A program made the translations under genes and the position numbers. Below, in pieces: positions 19,785 to 30,719 of a DNA stretch of 64,000 nt; the first letter of the stretch is position 1; each line of letters begins with the position of its first letter. Source of the DNA: Pseudomonadota bacterium. Lineage in GTDB: Bacteria > Bdellovibrionota > Bdellovibrionia > Bdellovibrionales > Bdellovibrionaceae. The notes below the pieces were generated by a model, which ran no database searches, had not been told where the DNA came from, and saw nothing but the letters and a program-made list of their open reading frames with translations. The stretch covers positions 114,998-178,997 of the forward strand of contig JBEGVH010000040.1 in assembly GCA_041178425.1 (NCBI GenBank). The letters are read 5' to 3'.

Positions 19785-20606
19785 CTAAGCGCCTTTCATT
19801 TGTATTATTTGTTGGATCAAAATAAAGCTTCCCATCAAGAGAACAAAATAACCAAAAGCCTTTTTAAGAAATTTTTCATCGGTTTTGGACGCCATTCGGG
19901 TTCCCAATTGTATGCCTATGGTGGCAATCAATGCCAACGTCAAAAGGAGTCTCCAATCGGGCGTTAGGCCCGTCGCAAGATTATTGGCAAACCCAAAGAG
20001 TGAGTTGATCGTAATGATGACGAGTGAGGTACCAACCGCCAATCTCATTGAAAGTCCCCGAAAAAATATGAGGGCAGGGATGATGAGAAAACCGCCACCA
20101 GCTCCGACGAGTCCAGTGACTCCACCGACGAAGATACCCTGACCAATAATAGGTAGCTTTTTCTTTGTGGCGGGTAGGTCTTGGCCCTGGGTCTTGGTTG
20201 GCTGGGGCGTAGCTTTTGCTCTGATCATCGAAATTGAGGCCAGCAGCATTAATACGGCGAATATCACCATTAGAAGTGCATCCTTGGTGAGTTGCATGGG
20301 GCCAAAGCTAAAGAGCACCGTGGGGATAGAGGGCACGATGTAGGTGCGCATGAGAAAAACCCCTGTTAGACTTGGGATCCCAAAAAGGGCCACCGTTTTA
20401 AAGTCAACGGTTCGGGAGCGCATGTACGAATAACTTCCAAGAAGGGTTGTTGCTCCAACAACAAAGAGAGAATAAACGGTGGCTGTAGCCGGTGGAACTT
20501 TGAATAAGTACACCAGAATCGGTACAGTCAGGATGGAACCACCACCACCAAGAAGTCCGAGAGTGACTCCCATAAAAACACTGGCTAGGTATCCTAAAAA
20601 AAGCAT
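19785..20606 (-). CDS. TauE/SafE family sulfite exporter
   Basis: Duplicated GLLGGGGSILTVP / GLVGAGGGFLIIP motifs, AVGTSL, about 8 TM segments. Confidence 0.9.
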   Translation of the reverse strand: MLFLGYLASVFMGVTLGLLGGGGSILTVPILVYLFKVPPATATVYSLFVVGATTLLGSYSYMRSRTVDFKTVALFGIPSLTGVFLMRTYIVPSIPTVLFSFGPMQLTKDALLMVIFAVLMLLASISMIRAKATPQPTKTQGQDLPATKKKLPIIGQGIFVGGVTGLVGAGGGFLIIPALIFFRGLSMRLAVGTSLVIITINSLFGFANNLATGLTPDWRLLLTLALIATIGIQLGTRMASKTDEKFLKKAFGYFVLLMGSFILIQQIIQMKGA

Positions 20607-20676: not shown

Positions 20677-20698
20677 AACGATGTTCTAGAACATCGTT
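20677..20698. promoter_or_regulatory. Perfect 22-bp palindrome, putative operator
   Basis: AACGATGTTCTAGAACATCGTT is its own reverse complement and lies between divergent genes. Confidence 0.6.
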
Positions 20699-20818: not shown

Positions 20819-21871
20819 TTGATTCGGCATTCCCTTATTTTTTTTCTGGTTTTTGTAGGGATCGAGGCAGTAGCCGTCGAAGAAGATCTCAATCTCGATA
20901 AAATCACCGAACTATCCGCTCCGGTAGTGATCCCGAAAACTCCCGAATCTAAGTATTCGCTTATGGGGCGAATGGATCTAACATTAGAAAGTAATCCGGT
21001 CACGGCCGCAGCCAACGGCAACCGATCGGACCTCAAGAATTGGCATGGATTGCGCCTCTTTTTAAAATTAAAAGCTTCGGCCAAGACTCATTTTTTCGGT
21101 GAAGTAGCCAATCAAGATTTTTACTACGTTGATTACAAGACAACTGATCACACCACGGTGAGTTTTGGAAAGATTATTGTTCCTTTTGGAGACACCCGGT
21201 ATTTTCACCATTTCTACGGTGGGATCCAAGGAAAAGGAGCCACTGGAATTATGTTTCCAAATGTTTGGGCCGAGTCAGGGGTGAGTGTTCAGACGCAAGC
21301 AGGTCGTGACCTTGTTCTTGATACTTATGTTGTTAATGGTTTTAAGGCTTCTTCAGCAACGACCTTTCCGGATCTCAATCAAGCGGCCAGTGATAATCCC
21401 AGTGGCACCAAACGCCAGGCCCTCGGGGCTCGTCTTCAATGGCAGGGCCAGGAACGACTTACGGTCTTGGCTTCGGGCTACCTCGATGTTTATTGGGATA
21501 ATCGGCGGTTAAGCTTGCTGGGTCTTGATGCTTTCTCTGATTATGGGTTTTTTAGTTGGCCCATTCGTTTTGGTTTAGGGGTTGCCGATGCGACCGCCGA
21601 AAAAATACCGCAACAGGGAACTTTGCATCGACGAGGCGATTATATTTTGCTCGCAGGAAACGACTTTGGGCCAGGAGAGTGGAGACTTCGTTACGGAACC
21701 TACAATCATATTACCAAAACTCAGTCCGATGATGACAGTCATAGTTTTGATATGGCCTACATCTGGAACATCGACGTCATCCGCATGATGATTCAGAGGC
21801 AATGGAATTTCGAGTCGCAAAATGAAAAAGACGACGATCTCTGGCGTTTGATGACCAGTATCGATTTTTAA
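20819..21871 (+). CDS. Outer-membrane beta-barrel porin
   Basis: GGAGG RBS before TTG 20819; signal peptide; FGKIIVPFG and PNVWAESG resemble OprO/P-like porins; ends in F. Confidence 0.7.
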   Translation: MIRHSLIFFLVFVGIEAVAVEEDLNLDKITELSAPVVIPKTPESKYSLMGRMDLTLESNPVTAAANGNRSDLKNWHGLRLFLKLKASAKTHFFGEVANQDFYYVDYKTTDHTTVSFGKIIVPFGDTRYFHHFYGGIQGKGATGIMFPNVWAESGVSVQTQAGRDLVLDTYVVNGFKASSATTFPDLNQAASDNPSGTKRQALGARLQWQGQERLTVLASGYLDVYWDNRRLSLLGLDAFSDYGFFSWPIRFGLGVADATAEKIPQQGTLHRRGDYILLAGNDFGPGEWRLRYGTYNHITKTQSDDDSHSFDMAYIWNIDVIRMMIQRQWNFESQNEKDDDLWRLMTSIDF

Positions 21872-21894
21872 AATGAGAGAGGAATAAAAGAACG

Positions 21895-22473
21895 ATGACA
21901 TGGACTCAAGTGAGTAGCCTTCGATTGCGAAACGCCCCGAGGGCTTTTAAGGCCTTAGCACTAGGCTTTGTATTTTCTATTTCATTGGCCTACCTCTATG
22001 CGCTTGGAAATATTGTGATGGTCGTTGGTCTCACACCCAAAGACATAGCCGTTCATTATTATGGAGCAACAACGAATATCACAGAATCGCCTGTTGCATC
22101 CGGTGAAGAGACCATCAATCTTGAGGATCTGGGGGAGCCGTCAGAGGCTGCACCGATAGCCCCTGGTCCTCGGCCGTCCTTTAAAAATCTGGTTGGCGAG
22201 GGTCATTTTCATTTGTTTGGAATGAGTAGTTTCTTTTTTGGTTTATGTCTTTTGGCGCTTTTCACTGGTATCAATGAGACCCTCAAGAGTTTTCTTGTTG
22301 GAGGAGCTTTTGTATTTGTTGTTCTAGATAACATTAGTTTTATGGCGACACGGTTTCTGGGGCCGAAGTTTGCGATGATGACGGCAGTATCTGGGGGCAT
22401 TATGGGGCTTTGTTTTGCGGGTCTCTGGTTATCGATTGTTTACGAACTGTTGCAAAAAAAGGAGTTAAAATGA
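21895..22473 (+). CDS. 4-TM inner-membrane protein with HFHLFGM motif (possible heme-b binding)
   Basis: Four hydrophobic helices; HxH at the start of TM2; stop overlaps the start of the FMN-binding gene. Confidence 0.65.
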   Translation: MTWTQVSSLRLRNAPRAFKALALGFVFSISLAYLYALGNIVMVVGLTPKDIAVHYYGATTNITESPVASGEETINLEDLGEPSEAAPIAPGPRPSFKNLVGEGHFHLFGMSSFFFGLCLLALFTGINETLKSFLVGGAFVFVVLDNISFMATRFLGPKFAMMTAVSGGIMGLCFAGLWLSIVYELLQKKELK

Positions 22474-22991
22474 AATGGCTTATTCTTTTGATGGTTTTTC
22501 TCAGTGGAATCGCTCAAGCTGAGGAATTGATCTCAATGAAAGATTATCTCAAAAAAGAACTTTCAGGTTATAGTAAACTGACCAAAGAATCTTTTGCGTT
22601 GAGCGTTGAACAAAAAGCCGAATTCGGAAAAGTAGCACCGAACTCTGATGAGGAGTCGTATACCTTCTTTTTTGGGAAGACCGCCGAAGGGCAGGTAGAG
22701 AAAGCCTGCACCATTGTTGCTCAAAAGGGAAAAGAAGGCCCTATATCGCTTGGGGTTTGTTTTGATCCAAAAGGACTTCTTCAATCGGTGACCGTTCTTT
22801 CGCATGAAGAGGAACGAGGTCGTCGAATCACCGAAGAAAGTTTTTTAAAACAATTCAAGGGAAAAAAGGCAACTGACGCTTTCGTTCTTGGTGCTGATGT
22901 TGATGGAATCAGTGGTGCCACTTACTCATCGAAAGCTATTTCGGAAGCTCTTCGTAAATCGGCCTTTGCATTCAAAACATTTGTGAAATGA
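22470..22991 (+). CDS. Periplasmic FMN-binding (flavinylated) protein, RnfG/NqrC-like
   Basis: Signal peptide; VDGISGATYSS carries the [S/T]GA[S/T] flavinylation motif; FLKQFKGK. Confidence 0.88.
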   Translation: MKWLILLMVFLSGIAQAEELISMKDYLKKELSGYSKLTKESFALSVEQKAEFGKVAPNSDEESYTFFFGKTAEGQVEKACTIVAQKGKEGPISLGVCFDPKGLLQSVTVLSHEEERGRRITEESFLKQFKGKKATDAFVLGADVDGISGATYSSKAISEALRKSAFAFKTFVK

Positions 22992-23515
22992 GAGATTCAA
23001 TGAATAACGATCGGTTAGGATCGACTTTAGTTCTTTTTGTAGGACTCACTTTGATGGGAGGTTGTGGAACCAAGGCTCCTTTTCAAAGGGGTAAAGTGGT
23101 CATCGAAGAGTCAGGTCAAAAAAATGAAAAGCCAAATACCGTCCCGACTGCGACCCCGACGCCTCTTCCTACGGGCGAGCCGAAAGCCTCTGAAACTCCG
23201 GTACCAACGGTACAACCCTCACCGGAGCCCCTTCCTGCGGTGACTCTCAATAGAGCCTATTTTAACAGTGAAATATTACCGTTGTTGGCTGCAAAGAAAA
23301 TTAATGGGACGACGAAAGGATGTTCGATGTGTCACGGCAATCCTGCAAGAACCTTCGAAGACGCACAAACCCTCGTAGTGCCCGGGCAACCTGAGAAAAG
23401 TCGTCTCTACATGAAGGCTACCGGTGCTGCGGGGTCCGGACATATGCAGATCTGGGCTTCGGATTCCCCGGAGGCGATGAAACTCCTGTTTTGGATCAGC
23501 GGTAAGGCTCAGTAG
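22988..23515 (+). CDS. Monoheme c-type cytochrome lipoprotein (planctomycete cytochrome C-like)
   Basis: Lipobox-like LMGGC, Pro/Thr linker, F..EILPLL...CSMCH, VVPGQPEKSRLY, distal Met candidate (HMQ). Confidence 0.78.
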   Translation: MRDSMNNDRLGSTLVLFVGLTLMGGCGTKAPFQRGKVVIEESGQKNEKPNTVPTATPTPLPTGEPKASETPVPTVQPSPEPLPAVTLNRAYFNSEILPLLAAKKINGTTKGCSMCHGNPARTFEDAQTLVVPGQPEKSRLYMKATGAAGSGHMQIWASDSPEAMKLLFWISGKAQ

Positions 23516-23529
23516 GTCGCTTGATATTT

Positions 23530-24528
23530 ATGAGAAAAAAACAACAATCGTTAGTGATTGGATTTTTAGTTTTTATTTTTACGTCGGCCTGTCAGCACAA
23601 GCCGACGTTTTTTTTATGGAATCAAAAAGTAAAGAGCTGTGTCTCTGAACACCGAATTCCTAGCATGGGTACATTTTTTGAAATGCAACTGGTGCATGCG
23701 TGTGACTTTAACCCCGAAAAGGTTGTTGTATCTGCCAAAGAAGAGCTCGATGCCATCGAGTCTGAGTTGAGTCTCTACCAAACGTCGAGTCAGCTGTCCC
23801 GGCTCAATCGTGATGGATTTCTTTGTCCCGCTTCGCCCCATCTGTTAAGAATGACCGAAGTGTCTATCGACTTTTACGAGAGAACGGCCGGAAGGTTCGA
23901 TGTTTCTATTTTACCAGTGTTAAAGGCAATTGAAAAAAGCTTCGAAAAAACAGGCAGGTCTCCGAAAGACCTTTCAAAGTTCCGCGCTCTCGTTAATGGT
24001 GCGGGTGTATCCCTTACTAACGGGTGTCTGCGTTTCAAAAGCCCAGGAATGGCTCTTACCTTTGATGGTGTAGCAAAAGGGTATGCCGTCGACAGAGTAG
24101 CAGAAGCATTAACGAATAATATCGATGGTTATCTTCTTAACTTCTCAGGAAATATGCGTTGGTATGGTGAAAAACCTGAGGGGCCATGGAAAATTGCTGT
24201 ATGGAATCCCGTGGCTCGCTCTTTGATTTCGCTAGCACCGACAACGAGCGGGGCGATTGCATCTTCTGGTTCAGAACATGTTCACTATGATTCGAATTCT
24301 ATGTGGCATCATTTGATTGATCCGAAAACTCTTCGCCCTTCGAATCGATACCAATCGGTGACCGTCGTTGGAAGCCGTGCCATGGAGTGCGATATTCTTT
24401 CGACGACTTTTTTTGTGCTCGAGTTAACGGAGGCGAGACGATTGCAAAAAAAACAGTTTCCCCAGGTCTCTCTTTACTTGATCAATAAAAAAGGGGAGCT
24501 CCAGTGGCTCCCCTCATTGAAAAACTAG
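23530..24528 (+). CDS. apbE: FAD:protein FMN transferase lipoprotein
   Basis: SMGT, FDVSI, DGVAKGYAVD, ASSG, HLIDPKT, D..ST; lipobox FTSAC. Confidence 0.92.
   Translation: MRKKQQSLVIGFLVFIFTSACQHKPTFFLWNQKVKSCVSEHRIPSMGTFFEMQLVHACDFNPEKVVVSAKEELDAIESELSLYQTSSQLSRLNRDGFLCPASPHLLRMTEVSIDFYERTAGRFDVSILPVLKAIEKSFEKTGRSPKDLSKFRALVNGAGVSLTNGCLRFKSPGMALTFDGVAKGYAVDRVAEALTNNIDGYLLNFSGNMRWYGEKPEGPWKIAVWNPVARSLISLAPTTSGAIASSGSEHVHYDSNSMWHHLIDPKTLRPSNRYQSVTVVGSRAMECDILSTTFFVLELTEARRLQKKQFPQVSLYLINKKGELQWLPSLKN
24487..24514 (-). terminator. Intrinsic terminator for the cytochrome gene, inside the apbE 3' end
   Basis: A6-GGGGAGC-tccagtg-GCTCCCC; gives a U-tract on the minus strand. Confidence 0.65.
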
Positions 24529-24542
24529 CGTTCTAGTCTCTT

Positions 24543-25340
24543 TTAGAGTGATCTAAAAGAGAAACTTCTATTCGCGCGAGTTAAATTGCCATGACATTGC
24601 ATGCACGATTGAGTGATCAGAAGTCCTTTTTCGAAGGCTTCAGGTCGCTCTTGAGAGGCCAATTGAACGGTTTCTTCCGCACGAAGATGAACTTCTCCCA
24701 CCATGATATCAGATCCGTGCATCATTTTTTTCTCTTTTAAATCTGCGGCGATGCGAGCGATCTCCATCGCGCTCATTCGTAGAGTAGCGAAGTTTTGACG
24801 GCCCAATTGCGAAGCCGCAAAAATTCCTGAATAAGCTGACATCATGCCATTCATGCTTTTGCACAAGTAGGGGGTGCGGCCTTCTTTGTTGCAATTTTTT
24901 GAAATCACATCCCAATCATTTTTAAAAATTTGATCCCATCCGATTCCGCTCGTAGCAGCCGTTTGACTATGGCAGGTCGCACATTTTTTCTGAATAGTAT
25001 TTGCAACCGTCAATGTCATAGGATCTTGATTGTTGGCGTATTGGGACAGCGTCTGAGCTTGGCTCATCACTGCCATGATTCCCTCTTGGTGATCAGTTCC
25101 GAGGAGCTTACTTTCAGCTAGATTTTGAGTGATGGCGTTAATTTCGCCTGCGATACTTCCCATATAGGGGTAGTTCACTTGCATTAATTCACGCTGTTCA
25201 CCCAAAGCCATCACTTGGCTCCTCAGGTATCTCATGTTGTAGCACAATTCTCCAGTCAAAGGATCGGAGCAGAGTGACGCATTGGCAGTATTAAAAAATA
25301 AAATCGCAGTAAATAAGCTGAACATAAAAGACTTTTTCAT
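24543..25340 (-). CDS. Secreted diheme c-type cytochrome, tandem helical-bundle (c'/c556-like) domains
   Basis: Signal peptide; CATCH and CMQCH each close an approximately 120-aa helical repeat. Confidence 0.75.
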   Translation of the reverse strand: MKKSFMFSLFTAILFFNTANASLCSDPLTGELCYNMRYLRSQVMALGEQRELMQVNYPYMGSIAGEINAITQNLAESKLLGTDHQEGIMAVMSQAQTLSQYANNQDPMTLTVANTIQKKCATCHSQTAATSGIGWDQIFKNDWDVISKNCNKEGRTPYLCKSMNGMMSAYSGIFAASQLGRQNFATLRMSAMEIARIAADLKEKKMMHGSDIMVGEVHLRAEETVQLASQERPEAFEKGLLITQSCMQCHGNLTRANRSFSFRSL

Positions 25341-25518: not shown

Positions 25519-28500
25519 TTAATTGGCTGGAACATCGGCGCGAGTCACCGTTTGAGGGGCCGGAGGGGGGCAAGCTTCGGAGACCATTTTCGCTATGCCT
25601 GTTGTTTTCCAATAGTCAGCCTTGAGTCTTCTCATGGTCTCAGTGGCTCCTTCACATTTTTTTTGTTGAAGAAAATCAACCGTTGCTAAAAACGGCTGCT
25701 CTTCAATTTGATTCCAGAAGTCTCCCATTTGTTTAAGATCATTCAATAGGCTGGCATCGGGCTTTTGCGAAAAGCGCGTTCTTAAGTCCTCATAACTAAG
25801 AAGTGGCTCTTGCGCTCTCTGCTGAGCCAGTTTGAGGTACCAAACGGATTGTTCGAGGGAATTTGTTTGCCAAGCAGCGACCGAAAGGTAGTACGGCCCC
25901 CAGGGTGCATCAGGAAACAAATCAGAAAGCCTTAGGGCGGCCACCTCCAGTTCTTTGTAAAGCCCCTTTGAAAGACAGGCATTGGCCTCGCGACCGAGGG
26001 CTGATAGCGAATTTAACCGACTGATGTTTGAGAGGACACAACTCTTTTTGCCGACAGTGAGATCGAGGAGGGGACGGTAGGCAATGGCTTCTTCCCAGGA
26101 TGGAACGTAGATTCTCAGCTCGCGGCCATTGAGATCGGAGCGAGACCCTTGAAGGTTGTTTTGTGAGACCAGGGTAGTTTTTGTTATCTGTTCAAGGTCT
26201 GCGAGCGCTTTCTCGATGTCTCGCGGACGGTTTTGTAAGGTTGGTAGAATTTGTGAAATTTCCTCCTTCAGTGCCATGAGGTCTTCGTTCTTAGTATCAA
26301 AGGAGTCTGCAGACGTTTGCAGTGCTTGAGTATAATCGGCGTACAGGTTTTTAAGATCGAGAAGAGCTTTTTTACGGATGTCGAGGTCGTCTGACTTGCC
26401 ACCGAGTGTTTCCAGGAGCTGCGCGGCCTTGGCAAATTTTTCTGCTTTAAACGACATGACCATAGCCATACGACCGGAAGAGGCCTTCAGCCCTTGCTTG
26501 AAGTATTCACTCACAAGTACTTTGGACTGAAGATACCGAGCTTGTCGGCGGATATCAGAAGGAGTCGTATCTTTGTTGAGGTTCAGAGCGATTTGGTAGC
26601 AATCAGACAACTTATTTTTTGAACAAAGCTCTTCTCCTCTTTTGAGTTCCGCTTTGCTAAAGTAGGGTTCTACCCCTTTTTCGATCAGGGTGTTCTCGAG
26701 CTTTTTTGCTTTTTCAGGAGAATACTGACCAAAGAATTTCAAGCGCTTTGTTAGGAGCACTTGTTTTTCGCTGGCGCTCATTTGTTGCTCAAGGGCCTGC
26801 CATGCCTGGTCAGTTGATTCGACATCGCCAGACCAAGAGGAAAACTCTGCTAATAGCTCATTTAACTCGCGTTTTTTTTCGGGGGTTTGAACCAAAGATA
26901 AAGCGAGCGACATAGACACTCTTGCTCGATTCAGATCGCCGAGTTTTAAAAATAATTCATTGGCATGAAGACTGAATTTCTCTGCGTCTGTCGACTTCTT
27001 TATTTGCGCCATTTCTTTGGCTAACACTTCGGATTGCTCAGCGGCACGACGAAACTGCTTTCTTTTTTCTAAAAGCTCTATAGCCAAGTGAAGGGCATCA
27101 AGAGCCTTGATTTCTGGGCGATGCTCTTTATAGAAAAGCTCCGATAAGGTAGCCGCCTCACCGAATTTATTTTTTTCGACCAACTGTTGAATAATCGATT
27201 GTTGTGCTTCTTGATAAATTCCTTTGATTTTTAAGGCTCTTTCGCCGGTTGATGACTTGAGAATAATTAGACTCGCGGATGCGAGCGATGGATAGTCTTT
27301 TTTCGCTCGGTGAATTTCGAGAATTAAATCGTCTCTTTTGTTGATGAGAACTGAGGTTTTTGGAATCATTTTCGATAATGTGATCAGAGACTGGGAGAAA
27401 TCTCTCGCCTCATAGAAGAGATAGGCTTTTTTGAACATGACATCTTGGGTGAATTCTCCTGTTGGCATTCGCATCAAGTATTCATTGAGCGCCAAAGACA
27501 GTTTTTCACGAAGAACCTGATTCTTATTGTCTGTCGCTAGCTGACGGTCAAGACTGACAATATGCCCATAGAGGGCCGTATGAAGAATCGGGTTTTCGGC
27601 CTTCTCATTTTTTGAAAGCTCTTCGTATTGAAGGCCTGCGGCTTTAAATTCGCCTTGAGAAAAGAGAAATTCAGCATAAGCCAGGTGAAGGGGAATATTG
27701 GGTTCCTTTTGTTTCTCAAAATGGAGGTATTCACCAAAAATAAAATGAAGCTGTGAAATCATGTCTTTGCTTCGATTGAGTTTATTCCATGCCTGCCACC
27801 ATTGGCTTGTGTACTCAGTGAGAAAATCTGGGTAGCTGGTTTTACAGAAGGCTTCTGAGTCCTTGCTTTTCGACTGCCATCGAGGGTCGTTACAGAGCTT
27901 TGATGCGTCTTGAATAATACTGACAACGGTGGAGGTGTGCTGTTTGTCGTTGTGGTAGTGGGCTCTTTTAATCAATATGGGCCCGGCGCTTTCATCTTGA
28001 GGATTGTCTTTGAGGAATTGAGCAAGAACAGAATCCATTTCGAGAAGTTTGCCGTGGCGTTCATAAATTGCAGACAAGTCAAGGACGGTTGGTCCAACTT
28101 CATTTGGAAGAAGCTTCTTGTTAAAGTATGTGATCGCATTTTCGACTGTTCCAACTTCGCTGTAAAAGAGGGCGAGATCGCGCCGCGCCTCAGTACGAAC
28201 GTGCGAGATGGTGGCAATTTTCTGAGATTGAAGAAGAAGTTTTTCTAATTTTTTTAAGCCATCGCTCGTCTCTTTTTGATTGTAGGAGCACCAAGCACTT
28301 TTGTAGAGCGCAAGGGGGGCAATGGGTGTGCGAGGCCATTTTTGTACGAGATCGAAATGGGTCATCGCTGTCGCATAATTTTGTTTCTGAAAATAGAGTT
28401 CTCCCAGTGCCATGTTCGTCTCTGGCAGCAGAACTGATTTTGGAAACTTCTCAGGAATCATCAGGAATTTTTGTAAAGCAAGGTCTCGTTCTCCTCTCTG

Positions 28501-28971
28501 ATCATGGGCAAACGCCCGATTGAAAAGCACTTCATCCATGGCTGCAAATTGGGGGTGCTGAGCTTCAATGATTTGATAGTTTTCTATCGCCTTACCAAGA
28601 TAGTTTTTGGCACTGACCGAGGTTAAGTCACTCTGGAAGAGATCACGGAGTTTTTTTTCACTTCTGTAGAGGTCGATGAATCGCCCTGTTTTGGCTCGTC
28701 GGGTGTAGAGTTCGGCAAGGCGAAAAAGCAGGTCAGGTTGCTGGGAGCTCCCTTTGTATTTTTTTAGAAGGGCCTCTAATTGTTTGATGGCCATGTCTTC
28801 GCTTCGCGAGATTAGTGCTTCGGCTTCGGCCGCCGTTTTGACATTAGCCGCTTCAGTTTGTTTGTTTAGTTTGATCTCAGGAAGCACTCCCTTGGGGGTG
28901 TGTTCGGCGGCAAAAAGAGAGGTCGAGACTGATAATGAAAGTAACGACAACTGAAAGCGTTTCATAACCAC
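25519..28971 (-). CDS. Large periplasmic TPR protein (GltD/AgmU-like gliding component)
   Basis: Signal peptide; DLLFRLAELY, ALGELYF, ALYKSAWC, EARRDLALFY TPR motifs; in an operon with ExbB/ExbD homologs. Confidence 0.72.
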   Translation of the reverse strand: MVMKRFQLSLLSLSVSTSLFAAEHTPKGVLPEIKLNKQTEAANVKTAAEAEALISRSEDMAIKQLEALLKKYKGSSQQPDLLFRLAELYTRRAKTGRFIDLYRSEKKLRDLFQSDLTSVSAKNYLGKAIENYQIIEAQHPQFAAMDEVLFNRAFAHDQRGERDLALQKFLMIPEKFPKSVLLPETNMALGELYFQKQNYATAMTHFDLVQKWPRTPIAPLALYKSAWCSYNQKETSDGLKKLEKLLLQSQKIATISHVRTEARRDLALFYSEVGTVENAITYFNKKLLPNEVGPTVLDLSAIYERHGKLLEMDSVLAQFLKDNPQDESAGPILIKRAHYHNDKQHTSTVVSIIQDASKLCNDPRWQSKSKDSEAFCKTSYPDFLTEYTSQWWQAWNKLNRSKDMISQLHFIFGEYLHFEKQKEPNIPLHLAYAEFLFSQGEFKAAGLQYEELSKNEKAENPILHTALYGHIVSLDRQLATDNKNQVLREKLSLALNEYLMRMPTGEFTQDVMFKKAYLFYEARDFSQSLITLSKMIPKTSVLINKRDDLILEIHRAKKDYPSLASASLIILKSSTGERALKIKGIYQEAQQSIIQQLVEKNKFGEAATLSELFYKEHRPEIKALDALHLAIELLEKRKQFRRAAEQSEVLAKEMAQIKKSTDAEKFSLHANELFLKLGDLNRARVSMSLALSLVQTPEKKRELNELLAEFSSWSGDVESTDQAWQALEQQMSASEKQVLLTKRLKFFGQYSPEKAKKLENTLIEKGVEPYFSKAELKRGEELCSKNKLSDCYQIALNLNKDTTPSDIRRQARYLQSKVLVSEYFKQGLKASSGRMAMVMSFKAEKFAKAAQLLETLGGKSDDLDIRKKALLDLKNLYADYTQALQTSADSFDTKNEDLMALKEEISQILPTLQNRPRDIEKALADLEQITKTTLVSQNNLQGSRSDLNGRELRIYVPSWEEAIAYRPLLDLTVGKKSCVLSNISRLNSLSALGREANACLSKGLYKELEVAALRLSDLFPDAPWGPYYLSVAAWQTNSLEQSVWYLKLAQQRAQEPLLSYEDLRTRFSQKPDASLLNDLKQMGDFWNQIEEQPFLATVDFLQQKKCEGATETMRRLKADYWKTTGIAKMVSEACPPPAPQTVTRADVPAN

Positions 28972-28973
28972 CT

Positions 28974-29468
28974 CTAATTTCCTGAAATAGTTGCAAGGCG
29001 AACTTTTAAAAAACCAGCCATGGAGGCCGTCGATAAAATTTGTCGGACATTGGGGTATGGCGCCTCTCGATCAACTTGGAGAATGATTTCCTCTTTATCT
29101 TTCTTAGACTTTTTTATTTCTTGAAGGGCCGCAAGAAGTGGCTTGATGATCTCACCTTGGTCGATGTCTTTTGAGGCGACCATAAAATTGTTAACTTTTA
29201 AGAGCTCCTTTTCATTAAGGCTCAAGAGATCCTTTGAAAGGCTTACCATGGGGGCTTCTTGAGGTTGTTGGTCCGAAACAGAAGTGGGCATTCGAACTCC
29301 CATTTGAGGTTTTACATCGTAGGAGTTCGTCGAATAGGTTTGTAAGAGAAACACCAACATGATGGTAAACATGTCGGTCATAGAGTTTATATTTAACGAG
29401 AATGTTGTATTGGGTTTCTTTTTAAATCGGATTCTTCTATCCACTTTATCCCTCCAGCGTGTTGGCAA
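28974..29468 (-). CDS. ExbD/TolR family protein (AglS-like)
   Basis: LNINSMTDMFTIMLVFLL TM with Asp; IILQVDREAPY...AGF. Confidence 0.85.
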   Translation of the reverse strand: MPTRWRDKVDRRIRFKKKPNTTFSLNINSMTDMFTIMLVFLLQTYSTNSYDVKPQMGVRMPTSVSDQQPQEAPMVSLSKDLLSLNEKELLKVNNFMVASKDIDQGEIIKPLLAALQEIKKSKKDKEEIILQVDREAPYPNVRQILSTASMAGFLKVRLATISGN

Positions 29469-29991
29469 AGACTACATCAGGATACATATACTCAGTTTCT
29501 TCCAACGTGCCGGATTGAGGATTTGTAAACTTAAATTTTTCGTTCTTGGTTGGGCTCTTTCGAGCGGCATCAATTATTTTAACAATTGTATCGTAGGGAA
29601 CATTCCCCTGAGGCAATAGATCGAGTCGAAAGAGCTGAGGAGCTTGTCTCTTGAATCTCGCCAGTGACTCTTGAACTGTTTTGAATTCGTCCTCCTTTTG
29701 GGGATACGCCATTTTTAATTCACTGAGTGTTTTTCCCCCCGAAGACAACTTCATTTGAATACCCCTCGAAGGGTGTATTTGAAGCTCCAATTGTGGCATT
29801 TCATTGGGTTTAGCCTCGCTGACAGCAGCCGCCACCGGGGCGGGGAGTTCGCTTTGAATGACAACGATAGGAACAAAAGCGGATGAAACAATTAACACAG
29901 GAACCAGCTTGACCATCACCGCCAAGAGCGGCGCGAGGTCTAGCTCGAATTCATGCGATAGCCCATCGACGGGTAGTGATCTGCGTCTCAT
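29446..29991 (-). CDS. ExbD/TolR family protein (AglQ-like position), TM Asp absent
   Basis: ELDLAPLLAVMVKL TM; VPYDTIVKIIDAAR periplasmic ExbD motif. Confidence 0.8.
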   Translation of the reverse strand: MRRRSLPVDGLSHEFELDLAPLLAVMVKLVPVLIVSSAFVPIVVIQSELPAPVAAAVSEAKPNEMPQLELQIHPSRGIQMKLSSGGKTLSELKMAYPQKEDEFKTVQESLARFKRQAPQLFRLDLLPQGNVPYDTIVKIIDAARKSPTKNEKFKFTNPQSGTLEETEYMYPDVVFANTLEG

Positions 29992-30005
29992 GATAACCCC
30001 CTTTG

Positions 30006-30719
30006 TTACGAGGCTCGGTAGGCGCCGGCGCCATTTAATTTTGGTGCTTCTGGACCAAGGTCATCTGTGCCCGCGGAGTTAACCGAGAGGAGAGGCCCTG
30101 CGCCCGTCAAGGTTTCTTCTAGTTTTTGCACTTGCTCATAAAGTTCCTCTCCTAGCTGGTTTTGTCGAGACACTAAAAATGAGTACACGATCATCACCGG
30201 TATTGCGACAGCGAGACCAAGAGCGGTGGTGTACATCGAAACTGAAATACCATGGGCGAGCAAAGCCTGCTTTTGAGAGGGATCCGCTGTTGCCACCGCT
30301 TGGAAAGAAAGAATTAGACCATGAATGGTTCCGAGTAACCCAAGAAGTGTTGCGACGTTGGCTAACATCGACAGGTAGTGAATTCGCTTACTAAACTGTG
30401 GCATATTTTCTGAAAGCGCAATATCAGTGGCTTGGTGAATCGCTTCTTCTTCACGATCAGCCTTGAGGAGAATCGTTTTAAAGGCCTTGGCGAGAGGTTT
30501 TTTTGCGAGACCCTCGCAAAGAAGAAGAGCCTCTTCGTATCTCTGTTGTCCAACGAAGTGTTGGATCCGTTTATTGAACTGATCGGTGTTCAAATGAAAA
30601 TCAAAGAAAAGCGTCTTAATGCGCTCAGCAATGATGGCGATTGCAAAGAGGCCGGTGGCTATGATAGTCCAGCCAACGACTCCTGCATCGACGATGAAAT
30701 TAACGATTTGTTGTAACAT
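30006..30719 (-). CDS. MotA/TolQ/ExbB proton channel (AglR-like)
   Basis: ATLLGLLGTIHGLI and GIS..MYTTALGLAVAIP; three TM segments. Confidence 0.92.
   Translation of the reverse strand: MLQQIVNFIVDAGVVGWTIIATGLFAIAIIAERIKTLFFDFHLNTDQFNKRIQHFVGQQRYEEALLLCEGLAKKPLAKAFKTILLKADREEEAIHQATDIALSENMPQFSKRIHYLSMLANVATLLGLLGTIHGLILSFQAVATADPSQKQALLAHGISVSMYTTALGLAVAIPVMIVYSFLVSRQNQLGEELYEQVQKLEETLTGAGPLLSVNSAGTDDLGPEAPKLNGAGAYRAS

Follow-up and report, generated by a model that had tools for sequence, protein, structure and literature searches.

Which membrane protein would deliver electrons to a periplasmic flavoprotein, and for what purpose, is the question raised by a five-gene operon of a bacterium of the family Bdellovibrionaceae (assembly GCA_041178425.1, contig JBEGVH010000040.1). 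The operon lies within a stretch of 64,000 nucleotides (nt), hereafter the window, and encodes a porin, a membrane protein with a His-x-His pair (the HxH protein, or gene 2), an FMN_bind protein (gene 3), a cytochrome c lipoprotein (gene 4) and ApbE. An earlier note on this DNA had taken these genes for a flavinylation-linked unit carrying electrons across the envelope to the porin, perhaps for iron or metal acquisition, with the HxH protein as a new type of donor. Our analysis indicates that the unit is apparently an undescribed variant of ApbE-linked extracytosolic electron transfer, its main value being the candidate membrane family PF27139, to which gene 2 belongs. The five genes are as follows (aa, amino acids; TM, transmembrane helix; FMN, flavin mononucleotide; FAD, flavin adenine dinucleotide):

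20819–21871, + strand: porin, predicted 16-strand barrel; 350 aa, TTG start behind GGAGG.
21895–22473, + strand: HxH protein, 4-TM inner-membrane protein of PF27139 (Aq_1264_TM); 192 aa, GHFHLFGM.
22470–22991, + strand: secreted FMN_bind (RnfG-like) protein; PF04205 at 47.5 bits, E 3e-12; SGAT at residues 148–151.
23000–23515 (alternative start 22988), + strand: monoheme cytochrome c lipoprotein; Cys22, Pro/Thr linker, CSMCH at 108–112.
23530–24528 (alternative TTG start 23521), + strand: ApbE FAD:protein FMN transferase with a lipoprotein-like N-terminus; PF02424 at 195.8 bits.

All five open reading frames (ORFs) were recovered on the + strand where the earlier note had placed them, and the segments that it had picked out were likewise present, namely FHHFY in the porin, HFHLFGM in the 4-TM protein, SGAT in the FMN_bind protein and CxxCH on a Pro/Thr tether in the lipoprotein, followed by ApbE. 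Consecutive genes are separated by 23, −4, −4 or +8, and 5 or 14 nt; the start of the FMN_bind gene overlaps the end of the HxH gene by ATGA, and the same overlap is possible between the FMN_bind and cytochrome genes when start 22988 is used. The porin frame stays open upstream from GTG 20804, and the guanine-plus-cytosine content of the operon is similar to that of the remainder of the window.

The co-occurrence of these genes in other genomes was examined in 27 related loci of the same clade, nine from genomes and 18 from metagenomes. A locus was kept for counting if it reached no less than 1.1 kb beyond the HxH gene on the upstream side and 2.6 kb on the downstream side, which retained 17 loci, the other 10 being too short; the cytochromes of loci L022, L122, L127, L133 and L134 were scored by reading the loci. 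The order porin–HxH–FMN_bind was observed in 17 of 17, and all five genes stood in the same order in 13 (11 of 15 without two near-duplicates). Six families of Bdellovibrionota, and other lineages known from metagenomes, keep this gene order. The co-occurrence is therefore not a product of chance, and the five genes form a real, conserved and tightly coupled operon. Its spread is patchy: the HxH gene was found in 6 of 61 relatives, and a close profile detected it in 7 of 401 genomes from the phylum (one being a weak distant match), a broad profile in 11 of 301. In a tblastn search of plasmids three queries had no match, and the fourth gave one short, weak match that was not informative. An extra gene stands between the porin and HxH genes in L122 (5393–6571), L127 (6719–7912) and L134 (2435–3580), and in both scanned cases, L122 and L127, it is of the EB_dh family, which binds heme b. 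Apparent frameshifts were seen in the apbE gene of L021 and the porin gene of L016, and in L020 (5002–5892) two small membrane-protein genes without a family match follow apbE on the same strand.

With regard to the flavin module, the [S/T]GA[S/T] motif is kept in 22 of 24 related FMN_bind ORFs, the remaining two being truncated by contig ends. The window's FMN_bind protein, which is the single match to this family in the whole host genome, has RnfG (7zc6) as its best match in the PDB, and the RnfG model TIGR01947 scored below its cut-off. The flavinylated residue is the last one of the motif and, from the biochemistry of ApbE, the protein is predicted to carry a covalent flavin at Thr151 of SGAT. 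ApbE itself has the DGVAKGY, HHLIDP and DILST motifs and a hydrophobic N-terminus with Cys21, read from the sequence as an export signal, and its gene is the only tblastn match in the host genome. No ApbE was detected in three of three tested relatives lacking the operon (99–100% complete), and its presence followed the operon in all five genomes tested (three without the operon, two with an apbE-less operon). These observations uphold the earlier proposal of a dedicated ApbE with an FMN_bind substrate.

The host genome (3.06 Mb, rated 100% complete) was then the field in which membrane donors were sought. RnfD/NqrB (PF03116) had no match, controls being detected; Ferric_reduct/MsrQ (PF01794) had none in gene 2 or in the genome; PepSY_TM (PF03929) was not found genome-wide, and neither PF03929 nor PF16357 matched gene 2; DUF4405 (PF14358) was likewise without a match genome-wide. 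For the NapH/NosR type, the sole Fer4_5 (PF12801) match was CcoG, whose gene belongs to a cbb3 operon on a different contig. Hence, for the five tested membrane-donor families, no donor was found in this genome (PF16357 and DsbD were not searched genome-wide), in line with the earlier statement that none of the named donors is present.

Gene 2 is assigned to PF27139 by precomputed annotation, which is carried by the protein itself and by all 108 homologue matches, and also in the Atlas. The Pfam copy that we scanned, seemingly older than the PF27139 model, gave no match for the HxH protein, the porin or the cytochrome lipoprotein; the porin had no NCBIfam match either, and the cytochrome lipoprotein had weak ones only. 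As to the novelty claimed for the HxH protein, the family was already present in Pfam, and what holds is that a literature search on PF27139 returned no functional description; searches on aq_1259, aq_1260, aq_1262, aq_1263 and aq_1264 found no paper. In its AlphaFold2 (AF2) model (predicted local distance difference test, pLDDT, 87) the protein forms four long helices. H104 is kept in 132 and H106 in all of 134 broad homologues, and both are the only invariant residues of a 105-row alignment, followed by D145 (75%) and M170 (60%). The acidic loop 45–95, which joins helices 1 and 2, contains a CxxCH domain in 39 of 105 family members; this points to a periplasmic location of the loop and would therefore place H104 and H106 at the periplasmic end of TM2.

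The protein has this single histidine layer and no second one. Such a layer near the periplasmic face would suggest exchange with the membrane pool rather than wiring across from the cytosol; Huang 2024 (10.1101/2024.03.13.584918) gives two histidine layers for MsrQ, PepSY and DUF4405 proteins. We regard H104-x-H106 as a candidate heme-b or metal site. Clusters of styrene oxide isomerase and of COX1 appeared as weak structural neighbours in the Atlas, with template-modelling scores by query of 0.43 and 0.54, both under the bar for naming. Helix X of COX1 carries an HxH pair of heme ligands. Styrene oxide isomerase (PF26512) is described in PMC11374702 as a 4-TM protein binding heme b at a trimer interface through one His early in TM2. 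The likeness of gene 2 to either is an analogy only.

The setting of the family outside the window's own clade (context I) was informative on what its partners may be. In context II (L168–L170), a porin, a motif-bearing FMN protein and a short HxH gene are accompanied by Fur-like boxes. To the same context belongs L023 (7068–9682), where two tandem PF27139-like paralogues, with one histidine each of the HxH pair, follow a motif-like FMN gene, apbE being convergent and feoB divergent; this arrangement suggests a heterodimer sharing one site. Context III (L174–L180) comprises a porin, DUF4198, the HxH gene and an FMN-fold protein that often starts with an HxGH segment, accompanied in L176 by NikR and in L177 by CDF/RND genes, and is a candidate for an undescribed nickel or cobalt uptake unit. 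Context IV, taken from the annotation of L116 and judged similar on reading L117 and L119, contains a CsoR-type repressor, a heavy-metal P-type ATPase, a multicopper oxidase and a cytochrome–FMN-fold fusion without the motif, and context V combines diheme peroxidase-like genes with the same motif-less fusion. A motif-less cytochrome c–FMN_bind-like fusion was seen adjoining the HxH gene in L115–L119, L172, L173 and L182, in copper-type islands or beside large diheme peroxidase-like genes.

In context VI the cytochrome is fused into the HxH protein, and these proteins form one clade apart from the window's (Shimodaira–Hasegawa-like, SH-like, support 96) in a FastTree phylogeny with a midpoint root. 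The fused subfamily spans at least 589 GTDB loci. In the 80 loci that matched one query best, the neighbours included a class I cytochrome c cluster (median of four CxxCH; 74 loci), NrfD (34 loci), a multiheme-cytochrome b561 cluster (32), a 4Fe-4S protein (27) and MtrB (21). None of these 80 carried a gene homologous to the porin, FMN protein, cytochrome or ApbE of the window; five fused loci from a separate search (L183–L187) had mostly unrelated neighbour genes. Gene 4 and the inserted cytochrome are homologues (hhalign 95.8%, E 7e-9, 43 columns). By eye, a circular permutation appears to separate the inserted form from gene 4, the W-I/G-A helix of the inserted form preceding CxxCH. The idea that the fused form was the ancestor from which separate genes arose by fission was dropped on account of the tree, and since the fused forms are a separate clade, no direction of fusion or fission is claimed. 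An EB_dh gene was seen directly before a fused HxH gene in L171. Of 121 genomes in a phylum-wide sample, 30 matched, nearly all of one evenly recurring group (1.7–3.1 Mb); in this group (L138–L166, small Pseudomonadota genomes) the fused gene is almost always present and often lies beside monoheme and triheme cytochromes, and our guess is that these are Zetaproteobacteria whose locus is perhaps related to the grc operon. In one proteobacterial class, 58 of 400 genomes matched the family. Overall, a periplasmic carrier, flavin or heme c, accompanies the family in five of the six contexts, and a metal-handling neighbourhood in three.

A redox role of the HxH protein is likely, because members of its family are met time and again with a flavoprotein, with a cytochrome c (often as part of the same protein) or in MtrAB/NrfCD islands; this much of the earlier view of gene 2 as an electron-transfer component is borne out by the carriers recurring beside or within the family. 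The explanation that we favour, with a probability approaching but not reaching an even chance, is that the five genes constitute a periplasmic flavinylated relay reducing a metal ion admitted by the porin. ApbE would attach FMN to Thr151 of the gene 3 protein; gene 2 would take quinol-derived electrons at a His-ligated heme b near the periplasmic face and pass them to the Thr151-FMN protein and the tethered cytochrome; the solute that these two then reduce would be small, probably a metal ion (Cu or Fe), and would come in by way of the His/Met-lined porin. The relay is supported by gene co-occurrence, the tracking of ApbE with the operon, the failure to find an alternative donor among the families tested, the near-invariant HxH pair, the recurrent carriers, the metal contexts of the sister clades, the conserved His/Met residues of the porin and the weak Atlas likeness to COX1 and styrene oxide isomerase; the ligand role of the pair, the quinone contact, the direction of electron flow and the substrate are putative.

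Several results weigh against the relay. The evidence for a heme b on the HxH pair is indirect, and the searches that bear on it yielded no specific match: Foldseek with the HxH model gave no match at E ≤ 1e-3, VIA-align returned generic four-helix bundles (best Z 8.8, with 7deg at Z 7.1 among them), a PDB sequence search with the broad HxH profile found nothing relevant, and a profile comparison with the host's own CcoN produced no alignment (hhalign 0.2%). Adjacent apbE is missing in 4 of the 17 kept loci and the cytochrome in 2; L120 and L135 have the three-gene core only, and L018 and L022 lack an adjacent apbE, both genomes carrying one elsewhere. The FMN-fold partner of context III has neither a flavinylation motif nor CxxCH, so that HxH proteins exist for which no redox carrier is evident, and the 80 fused loci, as best matches to one query, are not independent.

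The metal evidence from the window's own clade points in the same unfavourable direction. Fur boxes were sought with a 19-position consensus and a 14-position pattern. The window's upstream region scored 11/19, the background mode, and 10/14, with no Fur box, and none of 21 upstream regions of the clade reached 12/14. Elsewhere this score was attained in 3 of 4 regions of context II (biased upward, the pattern having been tuned after viewing context II sites), in 1 of 6 of context III, in 0 of 6 of contexts IV/V and in 11 of 1000 random windows. Two 14/14 Fur-type sites exist in the host genome, G000:C41:8421, just upstream of a Fur-family gene, and C9:207688, near genes without an obvious iron role, so the test is able to detect sites here; Fur regulation of the window's clade was rejected. 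Similarly, in the neighbourhoods of 15 operons (92 ORFs, at most 4.5 kb away) NCBIfam at a strict E of 1e-25 named no Fe, Cu or Ni transporter, the sole transporter being a peptide-type ABC permease; many of these ORFs had no match, so this survey is not exhaustive, and a different regulator or a transporter encoded farther away may still serve the unit. Sister operons do lie in metal settings, with Fur-like boxes, FeoB, NikR/DUF4198/CDF or CsoR/P-type ATPase/multicopper oxidase genes. Iron uptake is therefore supported for a sister clade and not for the window's clade, where the absence of Fur boxes at 12/14 and of a transporter weakens the iron acquisition suggested earlier.

For the family as a whole, we tentatively propose, with somewhat less confidence than for the relay, that PF27139 is a widespread and overlooked inner-membrane redox hub, in which four helices with heme b on one HxH pair would connect the quinone pool to a lineage-specific periplasmic carrier, be it a flavinylated protein, a cytochrome c (fused or encoded separately) or the MtrAB/NrfCD islands. 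In surveys of ApbE flavinylation, no membrane electron partner is known for many of the clusters, and PF27139 is a concrete candidate for this place. If the proposal is true, the family would supply the membrane donor that a large number of orphan apbE clusters lack, and possibly also an inner-membrane link missing from neutrophilic iron oxidisers, and the window would represent a flavin-plus-cytochrome, Fur-independent form. A heme in gene 2 would define a new membrane cytochrome class and would link flavin, cytochrome and porin modules that now pass as "hypothetical" and lie in islands concerned with iron, nickel, copper or electron transfer. The role in this particular bacterium is less certain and narrower in reach than the family finding.

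Among the other explanations, the one that survives best, although we consider it rather unlikely, sees in the HxH protein no cytochrome but a metal-binding permease or a subunit that handles metal, with an ion held by His104/His106 together with Met110, Asp145 and Met170, and with the flavoprotein and cytochrome setting the redox state of this ion by means of electrons from elsewhere. It would account for the conserved His, Met and Asp on the inferred periplasmic half, for the lack of a separate metal transporter in the surveyed neighbourhoods of the window's clade, for the division of the two histidines between paralogues in L023, and for the NikR/DUF4198 clade, which has no evident redox cofactor and whose partner often bears HxGH. 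It fits poorly with one whole clade in which a cytochrome c is fused into the HxH protein's own loop, in multiheme/NrfCD/MtrAB islands, and it would leave the flavoprotein without a donor, none other having been found in the host genome among the families tested.

Less probable again is a respiratory or detoxifying periplasmic branch acting on a non-metal substrate that enters through the porin, the unit feeding or draining a periplasmic oxidoreductase encoded elsewhere. The lack of a metal-regulation signal in the window's clade agrees with it, as do the extra cytochromes nearby (a diheme cytochrome c at six loci, class I cytochromes in L016 and an 8-heme protein in L135), the cbb3 oxidase of the host and the tauE gene divergent from the operon in the window. 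However, no conserved terminal enzyme was found among the neighbourhoods surveyed, tauE was found at none of the 27 related loci, and the sister clades indicate metals.

Slightly below this in probability stands a true outer-membrane conduit, that is, a Cyc2 split in two, with the monoheme lipoprotein docked in the barrel and trading electrons with Fe or minerals outside the cell. Its assessment depends on the porin and gene 4. The porin model (AF2, pLDDT 84) is a 16-strand barrel matching ChiP, OmpU and Omp32 in Foldseek (E about 1e-11), and its neighbours in the Atlas are Porin_O_P, BBP2 and LbtU-like. Across 53 homologues, H76 and H130 are invariant, H308 is kept in 91%, M345 in 96%, and H131 and M145 in 85%, and the FHHFYGG segment lies in a long third loop (the predicted constriction loop L3), modelled at low confidence. 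Of the sister porins, the Fur-linked one shows weak homology to it (E 9e-5, set of 10 sequences), and for the copper-linked one homology is unproven (hhalign 11.6%). Gene 4 combines a lipobox Cys22, a conserved PFxRG after the lipid anchor, a variable Pro/Thr tether and one CxxCH (alignment A7). All 11 single-heme rows have the distal His (His148 here), so the heme of gene 4 is probably bis-His ligated and would have a low potential. The best PDB match of its profile is FoxE (5mab, E 6e-6).

An MtrB-type conduit was rejected for the 16-strand general-porin fold and single CxxCH, MtoB/PioB barrels having 24–32 strands (PMC5566968). The split Cyc2 was kept as a minor rival because Cyc2 is likewise predicted to have 16 strands and one heme c (PMC13692758); FoxE being an Fe(II) oxidase and the fused relatives adjoining MtrB, in 21 of the best 80 loci, also speak for it. 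Against it, the barrel, which resembles solute porins, comes with a conserved constriction-type loop of its own, a single heme on a flexible tether would be a poor wire, and the porin is retained at the loci from which the cytochrome is missing. The modelled porin thus fits better as a selective solute channel than as a sheath for a heme wire, and the trans-envelope transfer to the porin that had been proposed is weakened, since the model has 16 strands and the only cytochrome one heme. Finally, that these are neighbours without shared function, or a described system under another name (irc/grc, PCC3/PCC4), is very improbable: random adjacency is refuted by the conserved order, irc as described in the accessible sources, and judged by gene content without a sequence comparison of IrcC/IrcD or Grc, has no porin, FMN protein or ApbE, and the PCC3/4 membrane proteins have five TMs and two HX13H motifs.

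In comparison with the ApbE-flavinylation systems (Meheust et al. 2021, PMC8238504; Huang et al. 2024, 10.1101/2024.03.13.584918), as far as the accessible parts of these sources extend, the unit shares apbE, a secreted FMN_bind protein with [S/T]GA[S/T] and a His-bearing membrane neighbour, and in both cases flavin and cytochrome c appear swapped between related loci. It differs in its membrane partner, which is none of the NapH-, MsrQ-, PepSY-, DsbD-, Nqr/Rnf-like or DUF4405 types and has one HxH pair instead of the four histidines in two layers given there, and in the dedicated porin and monoheme lipoprotein that belong to the unit. The text consulted of PMC8238504 (abstract, introduction and results) and of Huang 2024 mentions neither the window's cluster nor PF27139, which the large cluster tables of PMC8238504 could hold; three small supplementary files of that paper, among those available, gave no match. 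The DUF4405/FezC, MsrQ-like and PepSY-like (FoxB) b cytochromes are also small helical proteins, proposed to reduce a flavinylated partner and often tied to iron handling, but the host has no such genes and gene 2 has only two conserved His, two residues apart. Within PF27139, the window's clade is set apart by a separate cytochrome lipoprotein in place of the fused cytochrome. MtrAB/MtoAB, PCC3/PCC4, Cyc2 and irc/grc likewise unite a porin, a c-type cytochrome and an inner-membrane protein in one cluster; unlike MtrAB/PCC, the unit has no multiheme cytochrome, 16 strands instead of 24–32, a flavinylation module and no HX13H motifs. The gene content of irc differs as described in the accessible parts of 10.1101/2025.02.27.639646, PMC8788666 and PMC12442390, the sequences not having been compared. 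Literature searches on an ApbE/FMN-binding/porin/cytochrome operon, and on Bdellovibrionota from 2021, found no paper on this cluster.

Around the operon, the following features were recorded:

20677–20698, no strand: perfect 22-bp palindrome, possible operator, in the divergent tauE/porin intergenic region.
19785–20606, − strand: TauE/SafE sulfite-exporter family gene, divergent from the operon.
24543–25340, − strand: diheme cytochrome c of no clear family, optional associate, convergent with the operon.

The genome holds no second exact copy of the palindrome, the closest other site having 4 mismatches, and it was not noticed when the upstream regions of relatives were read; it is possibly the operator of some regulator, and its membership in the unit is putative. 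A sigma-70 scan scored no better than shuffles. The tauE gene was rejected as a member of the unit; no copy was found at the related loci. A homologue of the diheme cytochrome was found near the operon in L014, L016, L019, L125, L128 and L131, with a weak match in L124, and two more paralogues lie elsewhere in the host genome (C29, C6). In L016 (10149–12795), and also in L125, a barrel-like protein with an N-terminal CxxCH is encoded divergently from the operon and is followed by triheme and monoheme cytochromes c; it has no family match and, by its motif, presumably resembles Cyc2. Further downstream in the window, on the − strand at 25519–30719, a 1150-aa protein resembling tetratricopeptide-repeat (TPR) proteins stands with ExbD/ExbD/ExbB-like genes, by eye similar to a gliding or Ton-type motor cluster.

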